IMG/VR virus record: IMGVR_UViG_3300021093_000006
Length of the DNA stretch: 64,000 bases
Source: a virus
Direction: 5' to 3' (one strand)
The notes beneath the pieces are model-generated. The model was given only the letters and a program-made list of their open reading frames with translations, did no database searches and was not told the origin of the DNA. Below are positions 10,289 to 36,956 of this stretch, one piece after another; positions within the stretch are counted from its first letter, which is position 1; every line of letters begins with the position of its first letter. The position numbers were made by a program, and so were the translations under genes.

Positions 10289-11398
10289 TTAATTATAGAT
10301 TCTTATTTCGATAGGTAAATCGCCAAAGTATGGTGTTGAGCTTGTGTCACCATCATATTTTGTAATTATAAATTCTATAACACTATTAGTTTGTACAATT
10401 CCTGTTACCATATAAAGTGCAGTACCACCACCAAATGAGGTAGGTTCAATTGAAATTTTAGGGTTAGTGAATCCAAAAAGTTTAGTTGCGTGTAGTGTTG
10501 CATTGTAAGGGTTACTCCATTCAATATCATTAGGGCTTAGGTTAGAACCGTCACCAATAGTATTTTCAAGTTGTGTAACACTAAATGATCCTAAGCTATA
10601 GGTAAGTAAAACTTTATATATTGTATAATTAACAGATGGTGTACCTCCAGTATAAAAACCACTAACATTAAAAGTACCTCCCGTATTGTTTGTAAATGTC
10701 GCAACTCCATTTGAATATGTCCCACCAGTTAAATACGTATCGGGGTCTATTGGTAAATTCTGATATGTTGTTGCTGATATTGTATTTGCACTTAAACCAT
10801 TTGTGAATATTGTAGATCCATTAACCGTTCCTCCAGTAAAATGAGGTACAGATTGCCAAGTGGCATTACCACTTATATCTGATGTTAAAACATATCCATT
10901 GTTTGCACCAGATGTTACTTGTAAATTTGTTGTTTTTGTTTTACCACCTACATCAAGTTTTTCTGTTGGGGTTGTTGTCCCAACACCTAATCTCTTATTT
11001 GTATTGTCCCAAAATAATGAATTATCTTGTTGTAAACTTGTACCGCTTTGAAATAAAATCCTACCATTTCCCCCATTTGATATTTGGGTTGACCCAACGG
11101 TAAGTGATGTATTAGTATTACCTGTTAAAGAACTGATATTTACTGTATAGGCAGATAATTGATCATTTCTATCAAAATAAATGATACCATTATTATATGT
11201 TGCAGCAGTGGTGTAAAAATCATTAATAATGGTAGTATTAGTTCCTCCAGTTGGGTTTATTAGTGTCAATACATTATTTTGATATGTTACGCCACTAACA
11301 CCAAAACTTTGTAGATAATATAAATTATCATCCATTTCTTTAATGGTTAATTTTGAACCTTTATCATTTGGACCATAAAATCTAGTAATTAATCCCAT
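10289..11398 (-). CDS. Tail fibre-like virion protein
   Basis: N-terminal R..KGSKLT..EMDDN anchor; RLGVGTTTPTEKLDVGG and GYVLTSDISGNATWQ fibre motifs; Thr/Gly-rich with repeated TGGT. Confidence 0.7.
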   Translation of the reverse strand: MGLITRFYGPNDKGSKLTIKEMDDNLYYLQSFGVSGVTYQNNVLTLINPTGGTNTTIINDFYTTAATYNNGIIYFDRNDQLSAYTVNISSLTGNTNTSLTVGSTQISNGGNGRILFQSGTSLQQDNSLFWDNTNKRLGVGTTTPTEKLDVGGKTKTTNLQVTSGANNGYVLTSDISGNATWQSVPHFTGGTVNGSTIFTNGLSANTISATTYQNLPIDPDTYLTGGTYSNGVATFTNNTGGTFNVSGFYTGGTPSVNYTIYKVLLTYSLGSFSVTQLENTIGDGSNLSPNDIEWSNPYNATLHATKLFGFTNPKISIEPTSFGGGTALYMVTGIVQTNSVIEFIITKYDGDTSSTPYFGDLPIEIRIYN

Positions 11399-11433
11399 AA
11401 TTTTTTATTTTATAAATATCATATATTTTTTTA

Positions 11434-13152
11434 TTATTCGAAATAACCATCGATATAATCACACTCAACATAATTATTAACACATGTTGGGTAAAATGTT
11501 CCACTAGTTTGATTATATTCTTCTCTAATGGTAGTAACATCTAATCCACAACCATATAATTTAAATGTCGATACCTTACCTTCAAAAGTACCTGCGAAAT
11601 TTTCTTGTAAAAATAAATTTTCATCTCGAACATCAGGACCATTAACAGTATTAGATTCTATCAATCCTTGTGTCCCACCACCCCAACTATAATTAAAAGG
11701 AACTCCTTGTTGTTTTTCTCTGTGTTCATTTAATTCTCTAAATAAAAATTCGTCAAAATCTTCTAAAGTCCATTTTAAATAACCATCTATATAAACAGTT
11801 AATTGACCTTTTCTTCTAGGTAATGTCTCTAAAATACAACCAATATATTGTTCATAGGGTTTGAATCTTACCGCCACGTGTGTCCATCTATCTGTAGTAA
11901 CTATTCCACTTAAACTATAACATTCGTAAATACTTGCACCTGTAATATATTCAGTTGTTACAGTTGTTGCAGTTGTTGTACCAGTACATCCACACCCACA
12001 TTGTTCGTGACAATCCACTATCGTAGTTGCCGTTACTGCCGAACACACACCAGTAGATATCACAGTTCTGAATCCAACACTACCATCATCCGTAATTCTA
12101 AATCCTAATGCATTGTATACAATATCAGCGTTTCTATCTTTTTCACTAATTATTTCAGTAGTAATACCAGTAAAACAACAACACCCTTGTGGTTGATACA
12201 CTAAAAATGGATTATTATTCAACACTTCAACTGATTCAACTGGTGGGGGTAAAGGATAACCTGATGATGTTGTATATCCTGTTTCACCACTAAATTGATT
12301 CCAAAATTTATTTTCTGATCTAGTACCCATATAAAAGAAAAATCCTTTATTATTGGGATAAAAATTATTTAATGTGTTCCCACTACAACTAGTAGATTTT
12401 TTATTTAACCAAAATGTTGCCGTCCAACCATCCAAACAAGGTAACCCACCTAATCTATCGGGTAATATTTGATAGTTATACGGAACAGGTTTTAATTTTA
12501 AATAACATTCATATGCCTTATTAGGGTCAATACCACATCCATGACTTGCACCACTACTACAACAATCAGTTATAGTTGTTCCAGTACATATTGTAGGACA
12601 CCTAAACCAATCTAAAGGCCAAGTAAATTTGTTATCAGTTATCTCATCAAAATATGTTTTATCCGATAATTTAAAAAATCCTTGATAAAATCCACCACAA
12701 AGATCTGAATACCTACCATTTAAATCAGTAATAACATCTATTGGGTATTCATAAGTGCAACCAGTAACTCTAGTCATAGAAAATCTAGTATCTGCCGAAC
12801 TTAAAAATAGTGTAGATCCTGTAAATGCCGATAAAAATGTTTGTCCACTTGTAGGTGCGTTACAATCATAAGTTATAAAACCATTGTCAATACCTGTTAA
12901 TCCTATATCGTATAAAGTAACACCACTACCATTTATTGTCGCACCTGTCCAAGTAGTTAAACTATAAATGGTATCGCCAGAATATGATGCATCATTATTT
13001 ATATCCATATCTATTAGGATACATTCATCTAAAATTAAATCATTGTCTTGTTCGTCTGTACAATCATAACATAAAAATAAGTCCCAGTAATCACTATTAC
13101 TAAGTCTCATCTTTAAACAATTGTCAAAATTATGTTGGTATATATTACTCAT
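11434..13152 (-). CDS. Cys-rich virion protein with LamG/concanavalin-A-like domain
   Basis: WTATFWL, WTHVAV, LTVYIDG, FEGKVSTFKLY..LD.TTIREEY follow the LamG fold pattern; about 28 Cys. Confidence 0.6.
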   Translation of the reverse strand: MSNIYQHNFDNCLKMRLSNSDYWDLFLCYDCTDEQDNDLILDECILIDMDINNDASYSGDTIYSLTTWTGATINGSGVTLYDIGLTGIDNGFITYDCNAPTSGQTFLSAFTGSTLFLSSADTRFSMTRVTGCTYEYPIDVITDLNGRYSDLCGGFYQGFFKLSDKTYFDEITDNKFTWPLDWFRCPTICTGTTITDCCSSGASHGCGIDPNKAYECYLKLKPVPYNYQILPDRLGGLPCLDGWTATFWLNKKSTSCSGNTLNNFYPNNKGFFFYMGTRSENKFWNQFSGETGYTTSSGYPLPPPVESVEVLNNNPFLVYQPQGCCCFTGITTEIISEKDRNADIVYNALGFRITDDGSVGFRTVISTGVCSAVTATTIVDCHEQCGCGCTGTTTATTVTTEYITGASIYECYSLSGIVTTDRWTHVAVRFKPYEQYIGCILETLPRRKGQLTVYIDGYLKWTLEDFDEFLFRELNEHREKQQGVPFNYSWGGGTQGLIESNTVNGPDVRDENLFLQENFAGTFEGKVSTFKLYGCGLDVTTIREEYNQTSGTFYPTCVNNYVECDYIDGYFE

Positions 13153-15236
13153 CTAATTAAATATAAGGCGATATCTGTATTAATATCTTTCATTTTTATC
13201 CACCTACTAGGTATTTGTTGATTTTTTAATATCCTAACTTGACCTACTAAACCTACAACATTCCATTCTGGTCTTTGTGATCTAGGTGTGTATGTTAAAT
13301 TAGGATCAAAATTATTACTAATTTTTGGACGTTGTTCTGTTATTGTTTTATAAATAGTATCACCACTTTCATTTATATAATCAGGTATTTCATATGAATA
13401 ATCTTCCATTACATATCTTCCCCATTCATCTTTTTCATATTTTCCTACCCATTCATCTGCGGTACCATCTTCATTATTTCCTATAAGTGTGGGATTAGAT
13501 GAAATTACACCTATCGCATTATTTGCGTCAACACAAACTTTTATTTTATCATCTTCTAATTCCACAACAGTTCCAAAAGGTAATGAATCACCAGATAACG
13601 ATTCAAAATATTCTGCGTAATCGGCACCTGAGTTATATGTGGCACCTGCCCCATAAACATTACCTGCCGAATCTACTCTAAAAGCGTTTGCCCTAGCAGC
13701 ATTTGATGTACCTCTACCTATTATAAAGTATTGATTTGCGTTTGTTGTGTTATTCCATCTACCTGAAACATGTTGGTATGGTTCGTAAGTAATTGTACCA
13801 TATCCTTCTGAATGTGAATAACTTGTAATGGCAGAAGTACTTAATCCTTCAGCATGTGATCCAGTACCCACTGATCTTGTTGACCCACCTTCAGCATGTG
13901 AATTAGCACCTTGAGAAATTGTACCACCACCTTCTGCATGTGATTGATTTCCTGATGCCAAAGTATTTACACCTTCAGAATGAGATCCAAGTCCTGAAGC
14001 GGAAGTAATTATTCCTTCTGCATGTGAATAGTTTCCTGATGCCGTTGTTAATTGACCTTCAGAGTGAGAAGATTGTCCAGATGCGATTGTGGATGTACCT
14101 TCAGCGTGAGAATAATCTCCTGATGCCGTTGTTTCACTACCTTCAGCGTGAGAAGCATCTCCTGATGCAATTGTTTCACTACCTTCAGCGTGAGAAGCAT
14201 CTCCTGATGCAATTGTTTCACTACCTTCAGCGTGAGAAGCATCTCCAACCGCAGATGTTTTTGATCCTTCAGCGTGAGAGACTAACCCAATTGCCAATGT
14301 TAGATTTCCTTCAGCGTGTGATTTATTTCCTGATGCCGTTGTTTTATTACCTTCAGCGTGTGAGTAATATCCTGATGCGATTACCTCATTACCAAATGCA
14401 AATGATGTTATACCTGTGGCAGATGAACCAGTAGACTGAACACTATCCCAAACAGTTATAGGTTCACCTTTAAGACCAGTTATAGGTGAACATCCTTTAA
14501 GGTTAGCTACGTTTAACGTATTAAAACAAATACCTGTAATGACTGATGATAAATCTGACCAACTACCCTTACCTGTATCATCTATTTGAGTTAGGATATA
14601 ATTTGTTGTTGCAGAACTTGCGCCATCAGTAATAGTTATTTTATTCGTAATTAATCTTCCGTCTACGGTAATATTTTCTTTTGACGAAATATAATCTAAA
14701 GGTCCTTTATAGTCTAAAGTTCCCGCAGAAAAATTTTCTTGTATTGCGTTTGTAATTCCACTTATTATACCACCTGATGATACTATATTATTAAAACTAT
14801 ATGTAATTGAATACCCAGTGTATTGTGTACCTATTATATAATCACCAGTATATCCAGTTTGCGTTAAAGTCCAAAAAGGACCTACTGTTTGTGTTTCCGC
14901 ACTTAATGGGGTTATTGGTAATGTTAAACCAGAAGTATAAACACTAAATAAAGGATTTGACCAAGTTGATCCACTAAACGGATCAAATGATGGATTATAG
15001 TTAGGTGATAATGGATTGGCAACGTCAAAAACAGTTGTACCTGTATTACCACTTAAAACTGCGTTCTGATTAGACACAATTCCTAAAGAAACTTTTGTGG
15101 CGACATTAACTCCAGTTGGGTATCCACTAAAAGGAATTCCTGCCTGAATTTTACCGTCAAAAGTGGCGGTTTCACCTGTTATTATTTTTGATTGTCTTGA
15201 AAGATCTAATAATGTAGTAAATTTATTTATCGGCAT
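13149..15236 (-). CDS. Trimeric tail fibre/spike with YadA-like SHAEG repeats and C-terminal peptidase G2-type chaperone
   Basis: About 14 repeats of 14 aa (S/A-HAEG..T.ASG). C-terminal GADYAEYFE...GVIS..P...PEWNVVGLVGQVRI as in phi29 gp12-type intramolecular chaperones. Confidence 0.85.
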   Translation of the reverse strand: MPINKFTTLLDLSRQSKIITGETATFDGKIQAGIPFSGYPTGVNVATKVSLGIVSNQNAVLSGNTGTTVFDVANPLSPNYNPSFDPFSGSTWSNPLFSVYTSGLTLPITPLSAETQTVGPFWTLTQTGYTGDYIIGTQYTGYSITYSFNNIVSSGGIISGITNAIQENFSAGTLDYKGPLDYISSKENITVDGRLITNKITITDGASSATTNYILTQIDDTGKGSWSDLSSVITGICFNTLNVANLKGCSPITGLKGEPITVWDSVQSTGSSATGITSFAFGNEVIASGYYSHAEGNKTTASGNKSHAEGNLTLAIGLVSHAEGSKTSAVGDASHAEGSETIASGDASHAEGSETIASGDASHAEGSETTASGDYSHAEGTSTIASGQSSHSEGQLTTASGNYSHAEGIITSASGLGSHSEGVNTLASGNQSHAEGGGTISQGANSHAEGGSTRSVGTGSHAEGLSTSAITSYSHSEGYGTITYEPYQHVSGRWNNTTNANQYFIIGRGTSNAARANAFRVDSAGNVYGAGATYNSGADYAEYFESLSGDSLPFGTVVELEDDKIKVCVDANNAIGVISSNPTLIGNNEDGTADEWVGKYEKDEWGRYVMEDYSYEIPDYINESGDTIYKTITEQRPKISNNFDPNLTYTPRSQRPEWNVVGLVGQVRILKNQQIPSRWIKMKDINTDIALYLIR
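14130..14246. repeat. Perfect 42-bp tandem repeat (about 2.8 copies)
   Basis: Unit TGTTTCACTACCTTCAGCGTGAGAAGCATCTCCTGATGCAAT starts at 14130, 14172 and 14214 (third copy partial); encodes HAEGSETIASGDAS. Confidence 0.95.
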
Positions 15237-20542: not shown

Positions 20543-20550
20543 AAAAATTA

Positions 20551-20772
20551 CTAATCATAAGTCTCAAGTGTTATTTTAACACCTTTTAAAATTTTTCTAT
20601 CTTCTTTAGACATTTCTCTCATAGTCTCTCTATGTGCCCTTTTTATTCTTTTTTTATATTCTCGTTCAGTAACATATTTACCATTACCTAATTTAACGGT
20701 TTTTTGACTAGCACAAGATGTAAATGTGATTACACTAATAAAAAATAGTGTTTTAAAAATTAAATTTTTCAT
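20551..20772 (-). CDS. Small predicted lipoprotein
   Basis: MKNLIFKTLFFISVITFTS-C: basic start, hydrophobic core, lipobox-like Cys; strongly basic mature part. Confidence 0.7.
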   Translation of the reverse strand: MKNLIFKTLFFISVITFTSCASQKTVKLGNGKYVTEREYKKRIKRAHRETMREMSKEDRKILKGVKITLETYD

Positions 20773-20881: not shown

Positions 20882-22138
20882 ATGAGTAAAATTAAAGTAT
20901 TAGTTGTCCCAAGTGACAGAACAGGAGTTTCATATTATAGATCTACAATTCCACACATTAAATTAGAAGAATATTTCCCTAATGAATTTCATGTGGACAT
21001 TGATTACGAACCTGAATTAAATAATGATGAATATTTAAAAAAATATGATTTAATTCACTACCACAGAACGTTAGGGGATTATAATAATTTAAAGAATTTA
21101 TTAGATAGGTGCGATAATTTAGGTATTGCAACTATTATGGATATAGATGATCATTGGTCACCTGGTCCTGATCACCCAGCTTGGGAAATTATTAAAAAAC
21201 ATGAATTAGATAAAAAAATTCTTAATAATTTAAAAGTATCTAAAAATATAACAACTACAACAAAAGTATTTGCGGATGAAATAAGTAAATACAATAAAAA
21301 CGTATTTGTAATTCCAAACGCTATTGATACCTTAGAAAAACAATATCAAAATAATTCAGAAAAAAGTGACAGAATAAGAATAGGTTGGTTAGGTGGTTCT
21401 TCACATTTAAAAGATTTAGAAATTTTAAAAGGTTTAGTAAATAAATTTAAAAGTGATGGATTAATAGATAAGGTACAGTTTGTATTATGTGGGTATGATT
21501 TAAGAGGTACCTTTACCACAATTGATAGAAATACTGGCGAACAAAAACAAAGACCTATTAAACCAAAAGAATCAGTATGGTATCAGTATGAAAAAATATT
21601 TACAGATGATTATAAAATAGTAAGTGATGAATATAGAGATTTTTTATTGACATTTGAAAATAAAGAATACCCAAATGTCATAAATGAACCTTATAGGAGG
21701 GTGTGGACAAAACCAATTACTTCATACGCCTCAAATTATAATTTATTTGACATATCTTTAGCCCCATTAAAAGAAAGTAATTTTAATAAAGTAAAATCAC
21801 AACTTAAAGTGATTGAGGCAGGTTTCCATAAAAAAGTAATTATTGCACAAGACTTTGGACCATATCAAATAGATATTATTGAGTCTTATGAAAAAGGAGG
21901 AACTATCAACAAAAATGGTAATGGATTTTTAATATCTTCCGCAAAAAATCATAAATTATGGTATAATCATTTAAAAAGGTTAGTTGAAAATCCTAAATTA
22001 ATTTCTAAGATTGGGGAGAATTTATACAATACTGTAAATGGTAGGTATGATATGAAAACCGTTTGTCAACAAAGAAGAGAACTTTACAGTAAATTAGTTT
22101 TAGAAAAAAGAAGTTTGGGGGTTGATTTAGTAAAATAA
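20882..22138 (+). CDS. Glycosyltransferase (GT-B fold)
   Basis: YYRS..PH, MDIDDHW, RIGWLGGSSH..DL, DISLAPL...FNKVKSQLKVIEAG. Confidence 0.85.
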   Translation: MSKIKVLVVPSDRTGVSYYRSTIPHIKLEEYFPNEFHVDIDYEPELNNDEYLKKYDLIHYHRTLGDYNNLKNLLDRCDNLGIATIMDIDDHWSPGPDHPAWEIIKKHELDKKILNNLKVSKNITTTTKVFADEISKYNKNVFVIPNAIDTLEKQYQNNSEKSDRIRIGWLGGSSHLKDLEILKGLVNKFKSDGLIDKVQFVLCGYDLRGTFTTIDRNTGEQKQRPIKPKESVWYQYEKIFTDDYKIVSDEYRDFLLTFENKEYPNVINEPYRRVWTKPITSYASNYNLFDISLAPLKESNFNKVKSQLKVIEAGFHKKVIIAQDFGPYQIDIIESYEKGGTINKNGNGFLISSAKNHKLWYNHLKRLVENPKLISKIGENLYNTVNGRYDMKTVCQQRRELYSKLVLEKRSLGVDLVK

Positions 22139-22164: not shown

Positions 22165-22728
22165 ATGGAACTAAAAGAAAAAATTATTAAAAACAGAGAA
22201 AAGTTTGAAAAAACTTCTAAAACTAATGAAATATTTAGTGAGTCTTTATTAAATTTTTTGGGTGAAGATTTATTTACTGCACCTGCGTCTAACATGGAAA
22301 GTATGTATAATGCCTTTCCTGGTGGATTAATTGATCACATTTTAAAGGTCACAAAATATGCAGTTGTATTAAATGACAGTTTACCAGAAAATTTAAGAGT
22401 AGATAAAAAATCTATTATTAAGGTTTGTTTTCTACACCAAATAGGTAAAACATATTTATTTAAATTTTGTGAATCTGAATGGCACAGAAAAAATACTGGT
22501 AAAATGTATGATTTTAATGAAGATTTAATCTCAATGAGAGTAGGAGAAAGATCCGCATATTACGCATTAACACATAATGTATCTTTAACAGAAGAAGAAT
22601 ATCAATCAATAATTAATTTCGACAAATCTGAAGAAGATAAACAATCAAAATGGTATGGATCAACTTTATCTACTTTATTAAGGCAGGCTAATGAATTATC
22701 AATAATCGAATGTAAAAAAAATAAATAA
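22165..22728 (+). CDS. HD-domain-like protein with HD changed to HQ
   Basis: AFPGGLIDHILKV...FLHQIGK aligns with the YhaM-type GGL.EH...LHDIGK. Confidence 0.7.
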   Translation: MELKEKIIKNREKFEKTSKTNEIFSESLLNFLGEDLFTAPASNMESMYNAFPGGLIDHILKVTKYAVVLNDSLPENLRVDKKSIIKVCFLHQIGKTYLFKFCESEWHRKNTGKMYDFNEDLISMRVGERSAYYALTHNVSLTEEEYQSIINFDKSEEDKQSKWYGSTLSTLLRQANELSIIECKKNK

Positions 22729-23347: not shown

Positions 23348-23488
23348 TTGGAAAATGCTATAGCTAACGAAAAGCGAGAATCTATAAGAATGAAAATTAT
23401 AGAATTACTAGTAGACGAATACGTTGATGATGCCGAATTAGGTAAGGCCGTTAGGGAATATGTAAATATAGAGAAAGATAATGATTAG
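23348..23488 (+). CDS. Small hypothetical protein (not in ORF track)
   Basis: TTG-start ORF ...EKRESIRMKIIELLVDEYVDDAELGKAVREYVN fills the gap. An upstream in-frame ATG at 23324 is cut by TAG at 23339. Confidence 0.4.
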   Translation: MENAIANEKRESIRMKIIELLVDEYVDDAELGKAVREYVNIEKDND

Positions 23489-25130
23489 TGTAGTTTACTG
23501 TACTAGAGAAACAAACCCAAAACATAAAGAACACATTATAAAAACATCTGGGTTACAGAAGAACATAGAAGTTATTGAAATCATAAATAACGGAGAATCC
23601 CTGACTAAATCTTATAATAGGGGATATAAACTAGCAAAAAACGATATTGTAGTATTTTGTCATGATGATATATTGATAGAAACTAAACAATGGGGTAATA
23701 AAATTAAAAAGCATTTTGATAAAAATAATGAATATGGTATATTAGGTGTAGCTGGTAGTAAATATATGCCAATCTCTGGTAAATGGTGGGAAAAACCAAA
23801 AGCCATGTATGGTAAAGTAAAACATACCCACAATAATAAAAGCTGGCTTTCTGAATATAGTGTAGATTTAAATGACGGTATTGAAGAGGTAATTAATGTA
23901 GACGGATTATTTTTTTCTATACATAAAAATAGAATTAATAATAATGAAAACCCATTCAATGAAGATGTTAAAGGGTTTCATTTTTATGATGTAGATTTCT
24001 GCTTTAGTAATTTCTTATCTAAAGTTAAAGTAGGTGTGGTAACTAATATAAGAATAAACCACATGTCTATTGGTCAAACAAACCAAGAATGGGAAAATAA
24101 TAGATTACAATTTGTTGAAAAATATAAAGATCGACTACCACAAAAGGTTAGGGATGAGTTTAAAAATAGAAAATTAAGAGTTCTTATAGGGTGTTTAAAT
24201 TTTCAAGGTTTAACTGGATCAGAAATATCTACCATGGAATTAGCTAAAGGTTTAGCTAAAAATGGTTGTGAAGTATATGTAGTATCCCAAATTGGACCTA
24301 CATTTAAAAGAGAATCCGAAAAATATAATATCAAAGTATTTGATCTAAATGAACCCCCTGGGTATAAAGTAGGTGATGGTAAATGGGGTATTAATACACC
24401 AGAAGGTTTTAAAGTAAGTCAGCCAAACATGCTTTATTTCATAAAAGACATGAAGTTTGATGTAATACATTCTAATCATACACCAGTAACTCAAAGATTA
24501 TTGCAACTATACCCAAATAATAATTTTGTAAATATTGTTAGATCTGAAGTAATTGATCTAGAGAATCCAGTTGTAGATACTAAAATAAAAAAATACATAG
24601 CAATTAGGTCGTCGATCAAAGATTATATCGTAAATAATTTTAATGTTGACGAATCCAAAGTTGAGGTTATATATAACCTATTTGATAAAAGTAGGTTTAC
24701 TGAAAAAAAATTAGATAAGGGAACCGATAAAAAAGTAACTTTATTTGTAGGTACAATGGATTATTTAAGGAAAAGTTCCATAGAGGATCTAATAGATAAT
24801 TCAGAGGAGTTATGGCTTGTGGGTAAAGATACCATGGGGTATGCTCAAGAATATTCTAATATTTATGATCACGTTAAGTATTTCCCACCCACAGATAAAA
24901 TAGAAGACTTTGTAAATAAATGTGACGAAACTGCTGGTATATTTTTAGGTAGAACTACGATAGAGGGATTTTTATGTGGTAAGCCTGGATGGATTTATGT
25001 GGTAGATAAACACGGAAACTACTTAAGTAAAACTTTTAGTGAAGTACCAGAAGATATGTCCATATTCGATAACGGGCAGATTATAGAAAAATATAAAGAA
25101 ATATATATAGACACCCATAATGAAGAATGA
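23481..25130 (+). CDS. Two-domain glycosyltransferase (GT-A/StrF-like plus GT-B)
   Basis: N-terminal VFCHDD, GILGVAG, FHFYDVDF; C-terminal GLTGSE..TMELAKGL and GRTTIEGFLCGKP. Confidence 0.85.
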   Translation: MISVVYCTRETNPKHKEHIIKTSGLQKNIEVIEIINNGESLTKSYNRGYKLAKNDIVVFCHDDILIETKQWGNKIKKHFDKNNEYGILGVAGSKYMPISGKWWEKPKAMYGKVKHTHNNKSWLSEYSVDLNDGIEEVINVDGLFFSIHKNRINNNENPFNEDVKGFHFYDVDFCFSNFLSKVKVGVVTNIRINHMSIGQTNQEWENNRLQFVEKYKDRLPQKVRDEFKNRKLRVLIGCLNFQGLTGSEISTMELAKGLAKNGCEVYVVSQIGPTFKRESEKYNIKVFDLNEPPGYKVGDGKWGINTPEGFKVSQPNMLYFIKDMKFDVIHSNHTPVTQRLLQLYPNNNFVNIVRSEVIDLENPVVDTKIKKYIAIRSSIKDYIVNNFNVDESKVEVIYNLFDKSRFTEKKLDKGTDKKVTLFVGTMDYLRKSSIEDLIDNSEELWLVGKDTMGYAQEYSNIYDHVKYFPPTDKIEDFVNKCDETAGIFLGRTTIEGFLCGKPGWIYVVDKHGNYLSKTFSEVPEDMSIFDNGQIIEKYKEIYIDTHNEE

Positions 25131-25911
25131 TAATATTTTATTGGCTGGACCTTGGATAGGCGAATTTGGTTGGGAATTATTTTGCTGGCAAGGATATGTA
25201 AGAAAACTATCTAGACAATATGATAAGGTAATTATCATAGGTAGACCAGGTAATAAGTATTTATATGAAGATTTTTGTGATGAATACATTGAATTTGATC
25301 CAGGCAGCTTTAAAACTGATGCTTGGAATTGCCAAGGCGCCAAAAATTTTGACCATATAATTAATTCTATTCCCCATACTAAATACTTAAATGGAATATT
25401 TGATATTGGGATGAGGTATACACATAATGGTGTAATTGACAGTAAAAAATTATTTTTTACAGAACAAGAATTTTTTAAATATAATTACAAATCAGATAAC
25501 ACATTTGATGTCCTGTTCCATTGTAGAAATAAATCTACTGGTTCTGAGAGAAATTGGGGTAGGTCAGAATGGGAAAAATTATATAATTCACTACCTAGTA
25601 ATTTAAAAATTGGTTGTGTGGGTAATGATGAATCATTTTATATTAGTGGTACTGAAAATTTAAGGGGTATAAATTTAAAAGAATTAGTTGGTATTTTTAA
25701 TAATACTAAACTAATTATAGGACCCAGCAGCGGCCCTATGCATTTGGCTAGCTTATGTGGACTTAAGCACTTGGTTTGGAGTACCGAATATAATAGAATT
25801 CGGTATGAAAGAGATTGGAACCCATTTAATAGTGAAGTGGTATTTTATTCTGGCGGTGATTGGTCCCCAAAACATAGTGAAATAAAGGAATTGATTTTAA
25901 AAAATTTATAA
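25120..25911 (+). CDS. Glycosyltransferase, GT9 (heptosyltransferase-like)
   Basis: GEFGWEL at the N-terminus; IIGPSSGPMHLASLCG is the GT9 signature. Confidence 0.75.
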   Translation: MKNDNILLAGPWIGEFGWELFCWQGYVRKLSRQYDKVIIIGRPGNKYLYEDFCDEYIEFDPGSFKTDAWNCQGAKNFDHIINSIPHTKYLNGIFDIGMRYTHNGVIDSKKLFFTEQEFFKYNYKSDNTFDVLFHCRNKSTGSERNWGRSEWEKLYNSLPSNLKIGCVGNDESFYISGTENLRGINLKELVGIFNNTKLIIGPSSGPMHLASLCGLKHLVWSTEYNRIRYERDWNPFNSEVVFYSGGDWSPKHSEIKELILKNL

Positions 25912-26850
25912 ATGAAAATATTATTTGTGGCAGTATTTACACATAACTCTACCAATGTGTCTCAATCAAGGGGATTTAAAGAAAATGGTTGTGAAGTTTT
26001 AGAATATGATTATAGAAAAAAATTAATAGAATTTAATAATGTCTACAACAGAGATTCTGATTTAATTGATGTTGCAAAAAAATATAAACCTGATTTAGTT
26101 ATTTTTAGTAAATGTAATAATATGAGTTACAGAGTTATTGATGAATGTAATAAAATTTCTAAAACTGCCTTATGGTATATGGATGCAATGAATAATTTTG
26201 ATGGGGAATTAATAGAAAAAATAAAAAGATGTAATTATTTTATTTGTGGTGTAGAGGGTGTAGTACCTCATGCTGAAAAATTTAATAAAAATTGTATATT
26301 CATACAACAATGTCCAGATGATTTAATGAATTTTTTAGATCATGATTTAGAAGATAAATGGTTAGATGATATATCATTTATTGGGTCGGCAGACTCATCA
26401 GCCATACATGGGGATAGGGTCAAGTATATAAATTTTCTAAAAAATTCATTTAGTAGTTTTAAACATTACAATGGGGTTTATGGTTTGGATCATAATAAAA
26501 TAGTTAACCAAAGTAAAATAAATTTAAACTTTTCACCAACTGATGGTAGCGGAGTTTCAGTAAGAATTTTCAAGATATTAGCATCTGGCGGATTTTTAAT
26601 GACTACGTCATGGAAAGACATGGAAAATACATTTATACCTGGGGAAGATATAATAATTTTTAATAGTGAGGAAGAACTAAAAAATAAAATAGAGTTTTAT
26701 TTAAAAAATGAAGATATAAGAAATAAAATTAGGCTTTCTGGGTACAATAAAGTACAAAATTATTTACCCAAAAGCTGGGCTAAAAATATTATAGATTATG
26801 TTACAAAAAGAGAAATACAATCTGATAATTATCATAGCATCGTACAATAG
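25912..26850 (+). CDS. Glycosyltransferase, CgeB/DUF3880-like
   Basis: DISFIGS, SKINLNF, SVRIFKILASGGFLMT, LRNKIRLSGY-type tail. Confidence 0.8.
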   Translation: MKILFVAVFTHNSTNVSQSRGFKENGCEVLEYDYRKKLIEFNNVYNRDSDLIDVAKKYKPDLVIFSKCNNMSYRVIDECNKISKTALWYMDAMNNFDGELIEKIKRCNYFICGVEGVVPHAEKFNKNCIFIQQCPDDLMNFLDHDLEDKWLDDISFIGSADSSAIHGDRVKYINFLKNSFSSFKHYNGVYGLDHNKIVNQSKINLNFSPTDGSGVSVRIFKILASGGFLMTTSWKDMENTFIPGEDIIIFNSEEELKNKIEFYLKNEDIRNKIRLSGYNKVQNYLPKSWAKNIIDYVTKREIQSDNYHSIVQ

Positions 26851-27481
26851 GTACGATATGTTATGTAACTTACTCAATAAAATTATAAAACAAGATAAAA
26901 AAATAAGTACTAAAATTATAGTTAATGATAATTATTCTTCAGATAATAGGTATTTATCCATAGGTCAAGAGTTTAAAGATGTAACCTTTTTAAGGTCAAA
27001 CCATAATAAAGGTAAAGATAAATATTGGCAAACTATAAATGAGTTATTAGTAGAAGTTAAAAAATACGATTTTGATTATTTATTAACCATACCAGATGAT
27101 TTTGATACATGTGATCACTTCATAGATCTATTAGTGGATGAACATAATTCCGCTAAAACAATAGACTCGCAAATAGTATGTACTACATACGCACATATAA
27201 GTAAAATTAAAAGATGGAATTTAACTTATTGGATGGATGGGGATGGTTTATTTGACAAAATATTTTTTGATAAAATTAATTTCACCATTGACCCAATAAA
27301 GCCTACTGGTAAGAATGCAGGTAGTGGTGTATGGGAACAGCTATCACAAAAAATAAACGCATTTAATTTTAAAATACATAAACCTAAAAATATATTTATA
27401 AATCACCTAGGACATACGGATTCTAAAATGCACCCACAATTAAGAAAGGTGAAAAAATTAATAATAGAAAAAACTATATGA
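26798..27481 (+). CDS. Glycosyltransferase family 2-like
   Basis: IIIASYNRYDMLCNLL, VNDNYSSD, TIPDDF. Confidence 0.75.
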   Translation: MLQKEKYNLIIIIASYNRYDMLCNLLNKIIKQDKKISTKIIVNDNYSSDNRYLSIGQEFKDVTFLRSNHNKGKDKYWQTINELLVEVKKYDFDYLLTIPDDFDTCDHFIDLLVDEHNSAKTIDSQIVCTTYAHISKIKRWNLTYWMDGDGLFDKIFFDKINFTIDPIKPTGKNAGSGVWEQLSQKINAFNFKIHKPKNIFINHLGHTDSKMHPQLRKVKKLIIEKTI

Positions 27482-28470
27482 AAGAAAAAATAGCTTTTTT
27501 GGCATATTGCGATTATGCAAATGTCCTGACCGAATATTCTAAAGTAATCAATGACTACTCTGAAAAATATGAATCTAAAGTAATTTGTTTAATGCCACAC
27601 CCATTTAATTACCAATTAAAACACGATTATGATTTAACTAGCGCTAATTATATAGAATTATCTAAAAAATGGGTAAATGAATCTAAATATATAATTTTTA
27701 GTGAAGAGATGGGTAAGGGTAATTATGATACATTAAATAATATTATTAGAAAATTAGGAATTAACATTGAGGGTAAAAAAATAAGTGCTTGGCACCCAGG
27801 ATCTAATTATAGAAAAAATTATGTTCAGTTTAACAATAACCCATTAAATAATAAATTACACAGAATTATTTACGCAATTGATTTATATAGGTTATCTAAT
27901 AAAAATAAAAAAGATATTACACTACTACCTTTTATGAGTTTTAACCATGATCCAAACCAATACATGGATAATATGATGAATAAAATAAATAGTGGTAATA
28001 GGATTTTTATGCACTGTCCGTCTAACACAGAAAGGAAGGGTTCTAATATAATTAAAACTACAATAGACTCATTGAATAGGAATGACATTAAATATGAAAT
28101 GTACACTGGAAAACCACATAATTTTATTATGGAACAAAAAAATAGATCATTATTCTATATAGATCAGTTTAATATAGAATCATCATTCGGAGTTGCTGCG
28201 ATAGAATCATTAATTTGTGGTAACGTCACCATGTGCGGCATCAATAATGCAAAAGACGGTATTGATAGGTACGGGTCTAAAACACAATGCCCCATAATTA
28301 ACCTGGGTATTACGGAAATTACACTAAAAAATACAATAGAAGAAGTCATGGGCTATGACAAGAATAAATTGATCGGTATTTGCGAGTCTAACTTAAATTA
28401 TTTACTAGAATGTTATAACGGTAAATCCGTTATAAAATATATTGAGGAAAAAATATTAAACGATGAGTAA
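27478..28470 (+). CDS. GT-B glycosyltransferase-like protein
   Basis: HCPSN.ERKGS, IDQF...FGVAAIESLICG (GT-B acceptor loop). Confidence 0.7.
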   Translation: MKEKIAFLAYCDYANVLTEYSKVINDYSEKYESKVICLMPHPFNYQLKHDYDLTSANYIELSKKWVNESKYIIFSEEMGKGNYDTLNNIIRKLGINIEGKKISAWHPGSNYRKNYVQFNNNPLNNKLHRIIYAIDLYRLSNKNKKDITLLPFMSFNHDPNQYMDNMMNKINSGNRIFMHCPSNTERKGSNIIKTTIDSLNRNDIKYEMYTGKPHNFIMEQKNRSLFYIDQFNIESSFGVAAIESLICGNVTMCGINNAKDGIDRYGSKTQCPIINLGITEITLKNTIEEVMGYDKNKLIGICESNLNYLLECYNGKSVIKYIEEKILNDE

Positions 28471-29092
28471 TTTTACATTAAAGTATTATAGAGATATGTT
28501 ACATAATTCCATTATAAATGGTTATCATATAACACCTATGAGAGATCATAATTTAAATTTTAATAAGCATATACTTATTAGACATGATGTGGATTTTAGT
28601 TTACAAAACACAATAAATTTTTCTAGTATAGAAGATGACTTAGGGGTAAAATCGACCTACTTCATAAGATTAAATAGTAAAAACTATAACCCCTTTTCTA
28701 TTGACAATTCTAAAATTATTATTAATTTAATAGAGAATGGTCATGAGATCGGTTTACACATTGAGCCAGATTATTATAAATTTATGAATTTAGATTACAT
28801 TAAATATATTAATACACTAATAGAACTATTCGAGGCTACCTTCAAAATAAAAGTATCTGGAATATCAACGCACGAACCTAGTAGATGCGGTTATATAATA
28901 GACAATGAAAATATAAAATTAATTAATGTAGATTATGAGGCATATTTGTTAAACGATTTTAAATATATTTCTGATTCTGGTGCTAGATGGAGAGAGGGGG
29001 ATCTAAATGAATGGGTAAATAAAAGTGATAAAATAATAATGAATACGCACCCTATATGGTGGTATAAAATTACCCCACTAGAAAACTATTAA
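28463..29092 (+). CDS. Polysaccharide deacetylase-like (NodB fold)
   Basis: IRHDVD, STYFI, GHEIGLH, STHEP, YISDS, NTHPIWW. Confidence 0.75.
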   Translation: MSNFTLKYYRDMLHNSIINGYHITPMRDHNLNFNKHILIRHDVDFSLQNTINFSSIEDDLGVKSTYFIRLNSKNYNPFSIDNSKIIINLIENGHEIGLHIEPDYYKFMNLDYIKYINTLIELFEATFKIKVSGISTHEPSRCGYIIDNENIKLINVDYEAYLLNDFKYISDSGARWREGDLNEWVNKSDKIIMNTHPIWWYKITPLENY

Positions 29093-29095
29093 TTT

Positions 29096-29839
29096 ATGAT
29101 TAAAATAATACAAATATTAGATTGGATTAAAACAAATAATTTAGATTTCATTTTATCGGATGATTTGGATATTAACGGTGAAATAACTGGCCCATGGAAC
29201 GCTAAAGAGTCTACTCACAAAAACATAACATTTATTAATGGAGAATGGTTCGATAATTCAGCCTCAATTGTATTTACACCTATTAAAAAAAACGTTAATA
29301 ACAAATTAATAATCATAACGGATGATCCTAAATATTATTTTGTTAAATGTATTAATAATTTTTTTAAACCAGAAAAATGTAAAATAAAAACTGGTAAAAA
29401 TTTTATAATGGGGCAAAATTGTTCTATAGGTAACGACGGCTTTGGTTACATAAAAGATAATGATGGTAAATGGTTAAAATTCCCACATTTTGGTAATGTA
29501 ATTATAGGTGATGATGTGGAAATAGGTAATAATGTTTGTATTGACAGGGGCGCACTAAGTAATACTATAATAGGTAACGGAGTAAAGATAGATAATTTAG
29601 TACATATAGCACATAATGTTGAAATAGGTGACAATACTTTAATTATAGCGCAGAGTATGATTGGTGGAAGCGCTAAGATTGGGTCTGATTGTTGGATATC
29701 GCCATCCACCTCGATAAAGAACGGAATTAAAATAGGGGATGGTGTTTTAATAGGTATGGGTGCTGTTGTAATTAGAGACGTTGAGGATAATAAAATTATG
29801 GTTGGTAACCCAGCTAAAGAATTAAAAAAAGATTTATGA
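29096..29839 (+). CDS. LpxD-like N-acyltransferase (left-handed beta helix)
   Basis: [44 protein letters not shown] as in LpxD. Confidence 0.8.
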
Positions 29840-30300
29840 AATATTTTATTCATGAAACTACAATAGTAGATAAAGGTGTTGTCGTGGGTGACAATACTAA
29901 AATATGGGCATTTTCTCATATATCTGATAATGTTACCATAGGTAATAATTGTGTAATAGGTGAGGGTGTACACATAGGTCCAAATGTAGTCATAGGTAAC
30001 AATTGTAAGATACAAAATCATAGTTTGATATATGAAGGTGTAACTATAGAAGATAATGTGTTTTTAGGGCCAAACACAGTAACCACTAATGATTTTTTAC
30101 CTCAAGTAGGTGGTGACTGGAAAAATAATGATAGATTTAGAAAGACACTCTTCAAAAACGGGTGCTCTATAGGTGCTAACAGTACTATAGTTTGTGGTGT
30201 CACAATTGGAGAAAACTCATTAATTGGTGCAGGAAGCGTAGTAACTAAAAATATACCTGATGCCGTTAAAGCATTTGGTAATCCAGCAAAAATAATATAA
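29836..30300 (+). CDS. WbpD/WlbB-like sugar N-acetyltransferase
   Basis: FIHET..VD....[32 protein letters not shown]-type hexapeptide repeats. Confidence 0.8.
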
Positions 30301-30301
30301 T

Positions 30302-30865
30302 ATGAATTACGATAAAATTAAATACTGGAATGAGAGGATCGATAAAAATAACAATTTTTGTCGCTCGATAACTAATCACCATATAGAAATAGTAAACCCT
30401 CATATTGAGCCAGGGATAAAAATACTAGAGTATGGGCCAGGCACTGGTAGGATGTTGGAATTATACGGTAGTCAAAAGTCTATAAATTTTTATGACATAT
30501 CATCTATGTATAGTTCAAAACTAAAAGATAATTGTAATTTAATTAATTTACCTATAGATACTTACACTATTGATAAGTCTGGAAACATTAAAACTAATTT
30601 CGACGACGATGAATTTGATCTAGTATGTGCATTTGAGGTGTTATTACATTCCCCAGATAATGAAATTGAGGTGTTGATTAATGAATTATCTAGAATAGGT
30701 AAGGAGGTTATTATAGTAACCTGGTATGAAAAAGGTTTAACTAAATCATCTAATCATTGCTGGACTAGGGATTATAAAAACATATTAACTAGTAATAATT
30801 TAAAAATATTACACTGGGACGAGACTTCCTTTAATAACCAAGTATTTTTTAAGTATAAAAAATGA
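30302..30865 (+). CDS. Class I SAM-dependent methyltransferase
   Basis: ILEYGPGTGR motif I; FDLVCAFEVLLH. Confidence 0.8.
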   Translation: MNYDKIKYWNERIDKNNNFCRSITNHHIEIVNPHIEPGIKILEYGPGTGRMLELYGSQKSINFYDISSMYSSKLKDNCNLINLPIDTYTIDKSGNIKTNFDDDEFDLVCAFEVLLHSPDNEIEVLINELSRIGKEVIIVTWYEKGLTKSSNHCWTRDYKNILTSNNLKILHWDETSFNNQVFFKYKK

Positions 30866-31878
30866 AATATAGAGTAGGTATAATTGGGTGTGGTGGAATA
30901 TTTCCTAGACATATGGAAGCCATTGAAAATAATTCGGATGAATTTACACTAGTAAGTGTTTGTGATATACAAGAGACCTTGGTAAAAAGTTTAGGGGAGA
31001 GGTACAACGTACCTAGCTACACATCATTTAAAGATATGATTTCTTATGAAGATATAAATTTTGTAGTTATTGCAACCCCAAACTCCCTACATAAAGAGCA
31101 AGCTATATACGCATTAGAAAAAAAATGTGATGTATTAATAGAAAAACCAGTAGCATTCAATATTAGTGACGTTATTGAGATAGAAAAATATGCTAAAAAA
31201 AATAATAAAACTGCTTATTGTGTTTTACAAGTTAGATTAAATCCTACAGTGCATCTAACAAAAAAAATATTAGATAATAAATTATTAGGTGAAATAAGGG
31301 GCTTTAGTTTTGCGCAAAGGTGGCAAAGACCATTAGAGTATTTTTCTGGGTGGCGTGGTGAACCTAAAGTAGGTGGTGGCATCTTGTATGAAACTGGGAT
31401 TCATTATTTAGACATATTACAGTATTTGATAGGATCACCTAAAAATATTATCGGAACTAAGGTATACACTACTAAACATAAGGGCGGTGTGATTGAAGAT
31501 ACTGTTTATTCACTAGTAGATTACGGTAATTTTGGTGGTACGATAGAGTCTACAATTGCCGCAGAACCGCACAATATCGAAAGTTCAATCTCACTATTGG
31601 GTTCAAATGGCTATATCAAAATAGGTGGTAAAGCTCTTAATGTGATAGAATCAGCAAATTTCTTGAGTCATGGTGCAACATTGCACTATGAAAACTTATT
31701 GAAGGATTTTAATTACCCTAAAGATCCTAACTCATACGGCTCTTATCAGGGATCGTGCCCAAATCACCCAGAAGTTTATAAAAATTTAAGTGTTTTTAAT
31801 ATAACAGAAACATTAAATGTTATAAAACTAATAGAGGAAATATACAATAAATCGGATATAAAATATAAAATGTATTAA
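30862..31878 (+). CDS. Gfo/Idh/MocA oxidoreductase, WbpB/WlbA-like nucleotide-sugar dehydrogenase
   Basis: GIIGCG, ATPNSLH, EKP, QVRLNP, WQRPLEYF...GGILYETGIHY. Confidence 0.85.
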   Translation: MKYRVGIIGCGGIFPRHMEAIENNSDEFTLVSVCDIQETLVKSLGERYNVPSYTSFKDMISYEDINFVVIATPNSLHKEQAIYALEKKCDVLIEKPVAFNISDVIEIEKYAKKNNKTAYCVLQVRLNPTVHLTKKILDNKLLGEIRGFSFAQRWQRPLEYFSGWRGEPKVGGGILYETGIHYLDILQYLIGSPKNIIGTKVYTTKHKGGVIEDTVYSLVDYGNFGGTIESTIAAEPHNIESSISLLGSNGYIKIGGKALNVIESANFLSHGATLHYENLLKDFNYPKDPNSYGSYQGSCPNHPEVYKNLSVFNITETLNVIKLIEEIYNKSDIKYKMY

Positions 31879-31881
31879 GTT

Positions 31882-32544
31882 ATGTCAGCAATTTTAAAAT
31901 ATGATAATAAAAATGTATCTATAGATGTTTTAAGTGAACAGGATATAATGCATATAAATTATTTTAGTAAGGGTAGTTTTTACGAACTAAAATTATTAAA
32001 CAAGATAAAATCTTTTGAAAAATCTGGGGTATATATCGACTTGGGTGCTAACGTAGGTAATCATTCTTTATTTTTTGGTTTATTCTGTCCAGTAACTAAA
32101 GTTATAGCCATAGAAGCGGAAAAAAATATATTTAACGTATTACACAATAATTTACTACGTAATTTAGATAATAATAAATTTGTGACTTATAACTGCGCAA
32201 TATCTGATTTTGACGGATTTGTTAGTATGTCCTTAGTTTCTAATATAAATGCTGGATCTACTCACATATCAGAAATTAATAATGGTGATACTAAATGTAC
32301 TACATTAGATAATTTAATAGGTGATTTAAATGATATTGCTGTTATTAAAATGGACATCGAGGGGTATGAGCTAAAAGCACTAACTAAAGCTACTAAAATT
32401 ATCGAGAATAACAAACCTATAATAATTACAGAAGTAAAAAATAATAATGAATTTAATGACCTAAAATTCTTTTTGGGTAAATATGGGTATACATGCGATG
32501 CCATTAATTATGCTAACACACCTACTTACATATGGGTAGCATAA
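31882..32544 (+). CDS. FkbM-family methyltransferase
   Basis: IDLGANVGNHS, AIEA, IKMDIEGYEL.AL. Confidence 0.88.
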   Translation: MSAILKYDNKNVSIDVLSEQDIMHINYFSKGSFYELKLLNKIKSFEKSGVYIDLGANVGNHSLFFGLFCPVTKVIAIEAEKNIFNVLHNNLLRNLDNNKFVTYNCAISDFDGFVSMSLVSNINAGSTHISEINNGDTKCTTLDNLIGDLNDIAVIKMDIEGYELKALTKATKIIENNKPIIITEVKNNNEFNDLKFFLGKYGYTCDAINYANTPTYIWVA

Positions 32545-32584: not shown

Positions 32585-33340
32585 ATGAGCAGAAGCAGAA
32601 GAAAAAATAAACAACTTTCCGAAGAAGAAATCCAGGAAATGGAAGCGTTTCTTAATAGAAACAATATAGAAGAAGAAAAACTTTTTAATACAATAAGTAT
32701 AAACGTAAAGTGTAAGACCGAAAACCAAAGAAAATTAGTAGATTCCATAAGACACAATGAGATTACAATTTGTAGTGGGTTACCTGGATCAGGAAAAACA
32801 TTCTTATCGTGTGCTGAGGCATTAAAATTAGTTACAGCTCACGAAAAATATAAAAGAATTGTCCTAGTAAAATCTATAACTCCACTGAAAAATGAAGAAA
32901 TTGGGCATTTACCTGGAGATCTAAAAGAAAAGATGGCACCCATCATGGAGTCATTTACTGATAATATTAGAAAACTTATTGGTAAAAGTAGAATGGAAAA
33001 ATTAATTGAGTTAGGTGTTATAGAAATTGTACCAATAGCTTTTGCCAGAGGTCGCAGTATCGATAACTCCATCATATTAGTGGATGAGGCACAAAATATT
33101 ACTTTAGAAAATATTAGAACACTAATGACTAGAATCGGAGATAACTCCAAAATGGTCATTATGGGAGATGTTAAACAAAAAGACTTGAGAAATAAAAAAG
33201 ATAGTTCTTTAGAGGTTGTAATCGAAAAGTTTAAAGATGTTAAAGGTTTTGGATGTGTGGAATTGAGAAATCCTAAAGATGTTGTTAGAAACCCAATTAT
33301 AAAAATAATAGAAGAAATTTTTGAATCTTTAGAATTGTAA
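32585..33340 (+). CDS. phoH: PhoH-family ATPase
   Basis: GLPGSGKT, IGHLPGDLKEK, RGRS, DEAQN, GD..Q.D, VVRNP. Confidence 0.92.
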   Translation: MSRSRRKNKQLSEEEIQEMEAFLNRNNIEEEKLFNTISINVKCKTENQRKLVDSIRHNEITICSGLPGSGKTFLSCAEALKLVTAHEKYKRIVLVKSITPLKNEEIGHLPGDLKEKMAPIMESFTDNIRKLIGKSRMEKLIELGVIEIVPIAFARGRSIDNSIILVDEAQNITLENIRTLMTRIGDNSKMVIMGDVKQKDLRNKKDSSLEVVIEKFKDVKGFGCVELRNPKDVVRNPIIKIIEEIFESLEL

Positions 33341-33718
33341 ATGGTTTTTATTAATAGTAAGATTGAAGTTAGAGAATCACCTATACATGGTATGGGTGTA
33401 TTTGCAAAAGAAAATATAAAATCTGGTGAAATAATAGAAAATTGTCATTTTACTATTTTAGAACAAAAATTTTTTGATATAAATAAAAAATTACAAGAAT
33501 ATGTATTCGCATACCCAAAAATTAATGCAAAAAATTCAGTGGTTGTTTGGGGATATGGGTCAATATACAATCATTCTAAAAATAATAATGCTGACTGGAT
33601 AGTTGATGAGGAAAAAAATGTATTCACATTTTTCACTTTAAGGGATATTAAGAAAGGTGAAGAAATTTGTATAAATTATGGTGAAGGATATAAAAGTGTG
33701 GTAAAAACTGTAAAATAA
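33341..33718 (+). CDS. SET-domain protein (lysine methyltransferase-like)
   Basis: SPIHGMGVFAKENI..GEIIE, YNHS..NN, RDI.KGEEI.INYG. Confidence 0.9.
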   Translation: MVFINSKIEVRESPIHGMGVFAKENIKSGEIIENCHFTILEQKFFDINKKLQEYVFAYPKINAKNSVVVWGYGSIYNHSKNNNADWIVDEEKNVFTFFTLRDIKKGEEICINYGEGYKSVVKTVK

Positions 33719-33719
33719 A

Positions 33720-36018: not shown

Positions 36019-36156
36019 ATGACAAAAATTCAATCATCAACCTATTACAATGTAAGTAATAGAAAAAAAAGAAAAGGTGTCCACTCAAAAACTAAAACTA
36101 GTAAACTTAAAACTAGTAAATATTATAAGAAAAAGTATAAAGGGCAAGGAAGATAA
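36019..36156 (+). CDS. Small very basic protein (45 aa, not in ORF track)
   Basis: MTKIQSSTYYNVSNRKKRKGVHSKTKTSKLKTSKYYKKKYKGQGR, clean ATG to TAA. Confidence 0.7.
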   Translation: MTKIQSSTYYNVSNRKKRKGVHSKTKTSKLKTSKYYKKKYKGQGR

Positions 36157-36179
36157 TAACAATAATTAAATAAAAAAAT

Positions 36180-36956
36180 ATGAGTAGTATTTCAGTAATA
36201 GTACCAGTACATAAATTAGAAAAAACATATTTAGATTCATGTATTTTAAGTATTATGAATCAAAAAGAAAAACCAAATGAAGTTATATTCGTAACATCTA
36301 ACGATAACGAATTAAAAGATTATCTTAATAATTACAATTTTGGTGAGATTAGTTCATTAGTTAAAATTTTAGAAAACGAAACAAATGACTATGGATTCCA
36401 ATCACAAATTAATTATGGTGTTAAAGAATCTACATCAACTTATTTTACTTTTGTAGAGTATGATGATGAGTTATCACCTATATGGATTAAAAACGCTAAA
36501 GAATATGCAAAACATCATTCTGATGTAGGTGTATTTTTACCTATCATATATGAGACTGATGAGAATGGTAAATTTATTTCATTTACAAATGAAAGTGTTT
36601 GGGCAAAAGATTTTACAGAAGTTAGTGGTTATTTAGATAATAATGTATTACAAAGAGTTCAGAACTTTAATTTTGATGGTATGGTTGTTAAAAAAGAAGT
36701 TTATGAAGAACACGGTGGTTTAAAAAGTAATATAAAATTGACTTTCACTTATGAATTCTTATTAAGAATGACGTATTTTTCTGTACCTGTTATGGTAATT
36801 CCTAGATTAGGTTATAAACATACAAATAATAGAGAGGGATCACTTTTTGTAGAGTATAAAAATAGTATTGATGTTTTAGAAAGTAAATTTTGGGTTAATA
36901 AAGCCAAAAAAGAATATTTTTTCACAGAAGATAGGGAAATAACATATGAAGTATAA
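36180..36956 (+). CDS. Glycosyltransferase family 2
   Basis: ISVIVPVH, YLDSCILSI, QINYGV, FVEYDD. Confidence 0.8.
   Translation: MSSISVIVPVHKLEKTYLDSCILSIMNQKEKPNEVIFVTSNDNELKDYLNNYNFGEISSLVKILENETNDYGFQSQINYGVKESTSTYFTFVEYDDELSPIWIKNAKEYAKHHSDVGVFLPIIYETDENGKFISFTNESVWAKDFTEVSGYLDNNVLQRVQNFNFDGMVVKKEVYEEHGGLKSNIKLTFTYEFLLRMTYFSVPVMVIPRLGYKHTNNREGSLFVEYKNSIDVLESKFWVNKAKKEYFFTEDREITYEV

Follow-up and report, generated by a model that had tools for sequence, protein, structure and literature searches.

The 64,000-nucleotide stretch of viral DNA analyzed here (the window) comes from the IMG/VR record IMGVR_UViG_3300021093_000006. It raises the question of what a short recurring motif, [ST]GxT, does in the outer virion proteins of an uncultured giant phage that also carries a cluster of glycosyltransferase (GT) genes. 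A preliminary description had read the motif as a phage-specific O-glycosylation sequon, modified by the phage's own GTs to give the virion a glycan coat. We find that the motif, better defined as [ST]-[GA]-x-T, is real, selected at the protein level and specific to this clade of phages. It is restricted to outward-facing, β-rich virion parts, namely tail fibers, a concanavalin A (ConA)-like protein of 572 amino acids (aa) and insertion domains of the tail sheath. Our preferred explanation, to which we give about an even chance, is that it serves as a turn or as a strand start in the structure of shuffled β-repeat modules.

Three fiber-module genes on the minus strand carry the excess. The 369-aa tail-fiber-like protein (10289-11398) has 7 copies of [ST]GxT versus 1.70 expected (p=0.001). 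The 572-aa protein (11434-13152) has 12 versus 1.13 (p<0.001), or 17 copies if [ST][GA]xT is counted, and the 695-aa fiber with SHAEG repeats (13149-15236) has 9 versus 1.94 (p<0.001). Expected counts were taken from 1,000 residue shuffles per protein. The observed numbers reproduce exactly those of the preliminary description. Pooled, the three proteins have 28 copies versus 4.8 expected, and the other 62 open reading frames (ORFs) of the window have 7 versus 7.8. The copies of the SHAEG fiber were said to be mostly N-terminal, and 8 of the 9 lie within residues 1-277. The motif was also said to be rare, by eye, in the polymerase, helicase and terminase; there are 0 copies in the DNA polymerase PolB (1300 aa) and in all other enzymes. 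Copies do exist, as had been noted, in the capsid protein (a single TGFT at residue 205; 1 versus 0.5 expected) and in the proteins encoded at 41802 (1 versus 0.35) and 60734 (2 versus 0.56), but all of these are at chance level. The excess remains significant when first-order Markov sequences, which preserve dipeptides, serve as the control (p = 0.0035, <0.0005 and 0.006 for the 369-, 572- and 695-aa proteins). Residue shuffles, pattern ratios and the Markov control thus rule out an artifact of composition or dipeptides. An origin at the DNA level is also ruled out: the preference for NNT codons before GGN at position 1 is identical at [ST]G dipeptides outside the motif. Position-4 codons follow background usage, with no motif-specific DNA signal.

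The exact form of the motif was obtained from 46 distinct homologs of the 572-aa protein, in which [ST]GxT is observed 531 times versus 47 expected. The observed-to-expected ratio is 11.5 for [ST]G.T, 8.0 for [ST]A.T and 1.9 for [ST]G.S, and [^ST]G.T is depleted (0.57). The parts alone reach 1.95 ([ST]G) and 2.42 (G.T), and the enrichment of the whole motif is greater than their product. These ratios define the motif as [ST]-[GA]-x-T. Position 1 accepts Ser and Thr alike, and position 4 requires Thr. Thr, Cys, Tyr and Val are common at the x position in this family. The residue at −1 is mostly hydrophobic or Thr, and DG.T is at chance (1.19x). When all 8,000 a-b-x-c patterns were scanned without bias, TG.T and SG.T took the first two ranks in the 572-aa family. 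SG.T ranks first after the SHAEG-repeat signals in 93 neighboring S/T/G-rich ORFs taken without preselection for the motif. Neither TG.T nor SG.T appears in the same scan of a distant relative (G046) or of Flavobacterium phage immuto. A literature search for TGXT or SGXT as a sequon returned nothing relevant.

The distribution of the motif over related phages is equally sharp. In 57 related loci, 145 of the 920 ORFs are enriched; all those listed share the strand of the 572-aa homolog and are its fiber-module neighbors. Among 79 loci that carry the 369-aa fiber, enriched ORFs occur in all 79. The complete, fully syntenic relative G030 (362 kb, rated 100% complete) has 8 enriched ORFs out of 407, around 2% of its proteome, and the remaining 399 have 51 copies versus 46 expected. 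The eight are the three fiber-module proteins, another fiber, the tail sheath, a 194-aa ORF and two unknown proteins. Candidates for capsid, tube and baseplate proteins, and most other virion proteins, are at chance. All copies in the 19 sheath homologs fall within variable regions (~119-280 and 542-575); the core formed by the conserved N- and C-terminal parts is free of them. One sheath homolog of 1636 aa (L156:4558-9468, plus strand) has an extra insertion of ~690 aa that brings 16 more copies; this insertion consists of ~95-aa tandem repeats followed by ~20-aa repeats of the form 'TGTT(SGFT)..YSG'. A generic property of fibers is ruled out by phage T4 (gp34, 0 versus 2.05; gp37, 6 versus 2.0) and by the cultured, T4-like phage immuto, in which no protein exceeds ~4x (p>0.01). 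We also looked for cultured-phage relatives of the 369-aa fiber, the 572-aa protein and the N-domain of the 695-aa fiber and found none.

The structural context of the copies was examined in models and alignments. The 572-aa protein is a conserved core of the fiber module and belongs to a family of at least 1,660 unnamed environmental proteins. It has no Pfam match. Its AlphaFold2 (AF2) model (mean pLDDT 61, pTM 0.65) was compared with known structures by Foldseek, which returned CBM40, pentraxin and neurotoxin Hc folds (probability 1.0, E 2e-4 to 1e-3, TM(target) ~0.5). The predicted fold is thus a jelly-roll of the ConA-like lectin or LamG type. In this model, 6 of the 12 motif sites are at hairpins or turns or directly before a strand: residues 58 and 190 form strand|G-x|strand hairpins, residue 111 is at a helix-to-strand turn, and residues 69, 76 and 390 immediately precede a strand. 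The rest are in coil or low-confidence loops. The AF2 model of the sheath has a mean pLDDT of only 37.5; its one confident part (residues 130-220) has the motif at hairpin loops or strand starts. Many copies belong to regular β-repeat modules. Many fiber copies are within a ~38-aa repeat, 'F-TGGT-V-NG-..-NGL-SGNT-ISATTY', and the sheath-insertion copies are within ~20-aa 'TG[ST]T(SGFT)..YSG' repeats. Five of the seven copies in the 369-aa fiber are TGGT. This protein contains an 'FTGGTVNG...ISATTY..LP' module; the ~70-aa 'TGGT...ISATTY' module has 430 relatives on viral contigs, and searches of Pfam, PHROG and the Protein Data Bank (PDB) with the protein gave no match. No close solved relatives were found for the 369-aa fiber or for the GTs.

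Conservation of the sites differs between the proteins. Four sites in the 572-aa family are nearly invariant among homologs that go down to ~28% BLASTP identity (residue 130, 46/46; residue 291, 43/45; residue 76, 40/46; residue 404, 38/44), and about twenty further sites are variably present. The 695-aa fiber consists of an N-domain of ~270 aa, YadA/Hep_Hag-like SHAEG repeats and a C-terminal Peptidase_G2 autocleaving chaperone. As a separate observation, the 572-aa protein has 28 Cys residues (3 to 50 in homologs), which cluster as CCC and CGCGC beside motif copies; the clustering suggests possible disulfide or metal sites. Some of its homologs have a C-terminal Fib_succ_major domain (PF09603).

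The sugar genes lie on the plus strand, opposite to the fiber genes. The preliminary description had counted eight glycosyltransferase-like genes; family matches support five genes, with six GT domains in all (at 20882, 23481 with two domains, 25912, 26798 and 36180). The other sugar-region genes encode two hexapeptide acyltransferases, two methyltransferases and one oxidoreductase resembling UDP-GlcNAc 3-dehydrogenase, and three ORFs have no match. The first GT (20882-22138; phrog_7162) is soluble and is kept across the clade. It is followed by genes for a weakly matched HD-domain protein and a dUTPase/dCTP-deaminase-like protein (22165-23303). Next is a 549-aa two-domain GT (23481-25130) with a GT-A domain (Glyco_tranf_2_5), the core GT of the clade, and a GT4-like domain. 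The island at 25120-32544 encodes Glyco_trans_1_2 and GT2 proteins, the three unknown ORFs, LpxD-like and NeuD/PglB-like acyltransferases, the methyltransferases and the oxidoreductase. It is hypervariable and is not kept in G030. Conserved in G030 are the first GT, the HD and dUTPase-like genes, the two-domain GT and the genes downstream of 32585, including a further GT2 gene (36180-36956; PF00535, 61 bits). Between the island and this GT2 gene are a phoH gene just 3′ of the island (32585-33340) and a gene for a SET-domain protein, a candidate lysine methyltransferase (33341-33718). The GT2 gene lies directly upstream of a gene with a weak match to gp55-type late sigma factors (36965-37699, plus strand; phrog_234, E 1e-4; Sigma70_r2, 21 bits, below the cut-off). 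No membrane segments were found in the sugar-region proteins, and no flippase, polymerase or priming transferase was found either. As predicted from their sequences, the GTs encoded by this phage are of a soluble type that would be able to act in the cytoplasm. Of 49 relatives' records, 40 have the GT-A domain, fused to differing C-terminal partners, and GT2 genes often directly adjoin the fiber module.

The link between the GTs and the motif was examined across relatives and other phages. The one natural contrast found is the motif-poor G046, whose 572-aa homolog is 28% identical and in which both conserved GTs are present side by side (43% and 48% identity). The 572-aa homolog and three large fiber ORFs of G046 are nevertheless at chance (2 versus 0.42, 3 versus 0.92, 2 versus 1.31 and 1-5 versus ~2). 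Phage immuto has neither the PF13712 GT nor the motif excess. The converse case, a motif-rich relative without GTs, was not found among the relatives examined, where about one third of the 79 loci had no identifiable non-fiber gene in the ±10-kb flank. Many short loci could not be placed, and all motif-rich relatives that could be placed belong to one super-clade. The co-occurrence of GTs and motif is thus not independent and is confounded by shared ancestry.

In our assessment the most likely reading is structural. The data establish the enrichment and its specificity, together with its confinement to ~2% of all proteins and its placement at turns, at the start of strands and in insertion domains; the structural role itself is inferred. 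The Ser/Thr hydroxyl would cap a tight Gly-containing turn and the β-branched Thr would begin the next strand; the position rules (Ser equal to Thr at position 1, Thr needed at position 4) fit such a side-chain cap and strand start. The turn element would have been multiplied in the outer-protein genes because fiber modules consist of short β-hairpin repeats and move between these genes by shuffling. The GT island next to the fiber module would then have another, or an unproven, target. The regular repeat context, the hairpin and strand-start sites in the models, the near-invariant sites, the residue rules and the contrast with G046 all speak for this. Several observations weigh against it. 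The x residues are not turn-like, the depletion of non-hydroxyl residues before G-x-T (0.57x) is not demanded by ordinary hairpins, and the S/T/G-rich fibers of T4 and immuto have no such excess. G046 has KDLE, EELP and KGLE at conserved motif columns, which indicates that the protein can fold without the motif and that the sites are probably exposed. In the N-domain of the 695-aa fiber, 3-10 copies are kept per ~270 aa, where chance predicts only ~1.9 for the whole window protein, while their positions shift, and no site occurs in more than 11 of 18 homologs.

The last two points speak for the sequon of the preliminary description, which we regard as possible but less probable. Here, soluble phage GTs would act in the cytoplasm and place a sugar on the Thr (or Ser/Thr) of the motif while the fiber, ConA-like and sheath-insertion proteins are folding or once they have folded, and the island would tailor the glycan by amino-sugar synthesis, N-acylation and methylation. 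The hairpin itself could be the recognition element, in which case this reading overlaps in part with the structural one. Sites that tolerate charged residues in G046 and positions that turn over at constant copy number agree with it, as do an 11.5-fold enrichment beyond the product of the parts and the first rank among 8,000 patterns. The 8 of 407 enriched proteins of G030, of which every identified one is an outer virion part, and the confinement of sheath copies to insertion regions also point this way; yet the candidates for capsid, tube and baseplate proteins show no excess, and many copies sit in regular β-repeats with several sites invariant. The enzymes lack membrane segments and membrane-linked partners, the GT-A and GT2 genes are widespread and often beside the fiber module, the island is hypervariable, T4 lacks the motif, and immuto lacks both motif and PF13712 GT. 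Set against this are G046, which keeps both conserved GTs without motif excess, the single super-clade, and the position of the GTs on the opposite strand among dUTPase-like, HD and PhoH genes. In addition, neither a TPR nor another protein-binding domain was detected in the GTs (Pfam and NCBIfam scans for TPR, the tetratricopeptide repeat), and in the literature found PF13712 is reported only from lipooligosaccharide (LOS) outer-core loci. The sequon interpretation is coherent, has a precedent and is partly supported, but it is unproven: a real motif on outward virion parts and soluble sugar enzymes near the fiber module stand, and a motif spread over the whole virion does not. A different surface function is unlikely. 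The motif could form a ligand- or anion-binding 'nest', provide a Thr-rich surface to which host polysaccharide binds weakly, or carry a different modification. It resembles the flavodoxin phosphate-binding fingerprint T/S-x-T-G-x-T, and the motif-rich 572-aa protein has a predicted lectin-type fold; 12-17 binding nests in one protein would be unusual, however. The GT island would in this case serve DNA hypermodification or host-glycan remodeling. The nucleotide-metabolism genes around the GTs leave DNA or host glycans as possible targets, and ThyA-like genes occur in the clade, although these fit ordinary dTMP synthesis as well as DNA hypermodification. DNA-glycosylation gene sets are typically smaller than this 11-gene sugar-tailoring island, and no membrane-linked polysaccharide machinery was found. 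DNA glucosylation and serotype conversion are among the options named for the core GTs of the large aquatic 'moraphages' (PMC12619734). The ThyA-like gene of G030 is in pieces with in-frame stops (C1:230121-232307, minus strand) and could contain an intron or an intein or be a broken gene; intact copies of 428-442 aa are present in the relatives G029 and G042.

The precedent for the sequon is SgtA of Clostridioides difficile, a soluble GT-A enzyme with TPR repeats that attaches β-O-GlcNAc to Thr and can also use Ser; its target is the (GPT)n region of BclA3, a protein of the spore surface (PMC7157674), where the acceptor context reads T-G-P-T. A Thr acceptor in G-x-T served by a cytoplasmic GT-A enzyme is thus established biology. 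The phage resembles this system, and BclA of Bacillus anthracis, in having soluble GT-A domains and a Thr-specific G-x-T on surface fibers, which is the same acceptor context. It differs in that its motifs are isolated or in β-repeats with irregular spacing and do not form collagen-like runs of G-x-T triplets. Its GT-A domains have no TPR in the Pfam and NCBIfam scans. Mycobacteriophages also are tailed phages with their own GTs; their virion O-glycosylation decorates capsid and tail-tube subunits with glycans at the C-terminal ends (Freeman et al. 2023, as cited in PMC12619734). In the present phage the capsid is not enriched, and the candidates are the fibers, the sheath insertion and the lectin-like protein. 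The presumed host is a Gram-negative member of the Bacteroidota, and the proposed acceptor is a defined internal tetrapeptide. Members of that phylum have a general Ser/Thr O-glycosylation system of their own. It acts outside the cytoplasm, whereas virion proteins fold inside it. The preliminary description was right that the host sequon is a different one: the enriched motif does not have the form D-[ST]-[AILVMT].

The phage itself belongs to a clade of ~350-kb T4-like phages that probably infect Bacteroidota, specifically Flavobacteriia. The window represents 64 kb of a 68-kb contig (CheckV completeness 15%) with a GC content of ~28%. It encodes a T4-type Gp23 major capsid protein (MCP), a family-B DNA polymerase with an intein, and the fiber with its φ29 gp12-type autocleaving chaperone. 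The best capsid matches are huge uncultured phages, Rhodothermus phage RM378 and Flavobacterium phages. This profile, judged by gene content and capsid matches, fits the 'moraphages', large aquatic T4-related phages with predicted Flavobacteriia hosts and an MCP related to that of RM378 (Perez-Hernandez et al. 2025, PMC12619734). Moraphages have four core GT orthogroups, the function of which was left open, and conserved GTs are likewise present here. They differ in that relatives of the present phage reach 362 kb and in that the motif is absent from their description (PMC12619734). The polymerase gene (5957-9859, minus strand) is interrupted by the intein, which has a LAGLIDADG homing-endonuclease domain; the G030 homolog has 1611 aa. 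The capsid gene (44132-45886, minus strand) matches its Pfam model in two stretches. Its best tblastn matches also align in two pieces and cover only 54-62% of the protein, thus implying a lineage-specific insertion.

Two upstream elements were observed in addition. An orientation-specific box, 'ATATTTAT', lies 8-70 nt (mostly 18-29) upstream of a start codon in 22 of its 42 window copies, versus 3% by chance; examples are upstream of 10289, 13149, 41802, 50215, 52167 and 61096. In G030 it is found at 71 genes, versus 10 for the reverse word. The box precedes fiber genes and many non-structural and replication-linked genes, and in G030 also genes just upstream of GT operons; it thus does not define 'late' genes. 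Judged from these positions, it is probably a phage promoter element that is not confined to structural genes. A small unlisted ORF at ~20550-20772 (minus strand) starts with a lipoprotein-type signal (MKNLIFKTLFFISVITFTSC...) and has a Bacteroidota-type TTTG-N-TAnnTTTG upstream at 20824 (minus strand), which makes it a candidate early phage lipoprotein. Another match, to TTTG..TAnnTTTG at 20385, is inside an ORF.

What the motif means for these phages depends on the reading. It is conceivable, though we hold this tentatively, that a clade of ~350-kb aquatic Bacteroidota phages has its fibers, sheath surface and lectin-like protein coated with phage-made glycans, attached at [ST]-[GA]-x-T by soluble GT-A enzymes and diversified by the hypervariable island. 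Such a system of protein glycosylation, defined by a sequon, would be the first in a phage of Gram-negative bacteria. A major group of aquatic, and perhaps gut-related, Bacteroidota phages would then have particles sugar-coated at predictable sites, with a bearing on host recognition, on resistance to proteases and grazers and on immune recognition, and the motif would offer a new short acceptor tag with soluble enzymes for glyco-engineering. If the motif is structural, it would be a compact turn element that marks outward-facing domains in uncharacterized phage proteins, and a warning that a motif together with a GT cluster is weak evidence for glycosylation. Under both readings the enrichment is strong and sharply defined, and it lends itself to a direct test.

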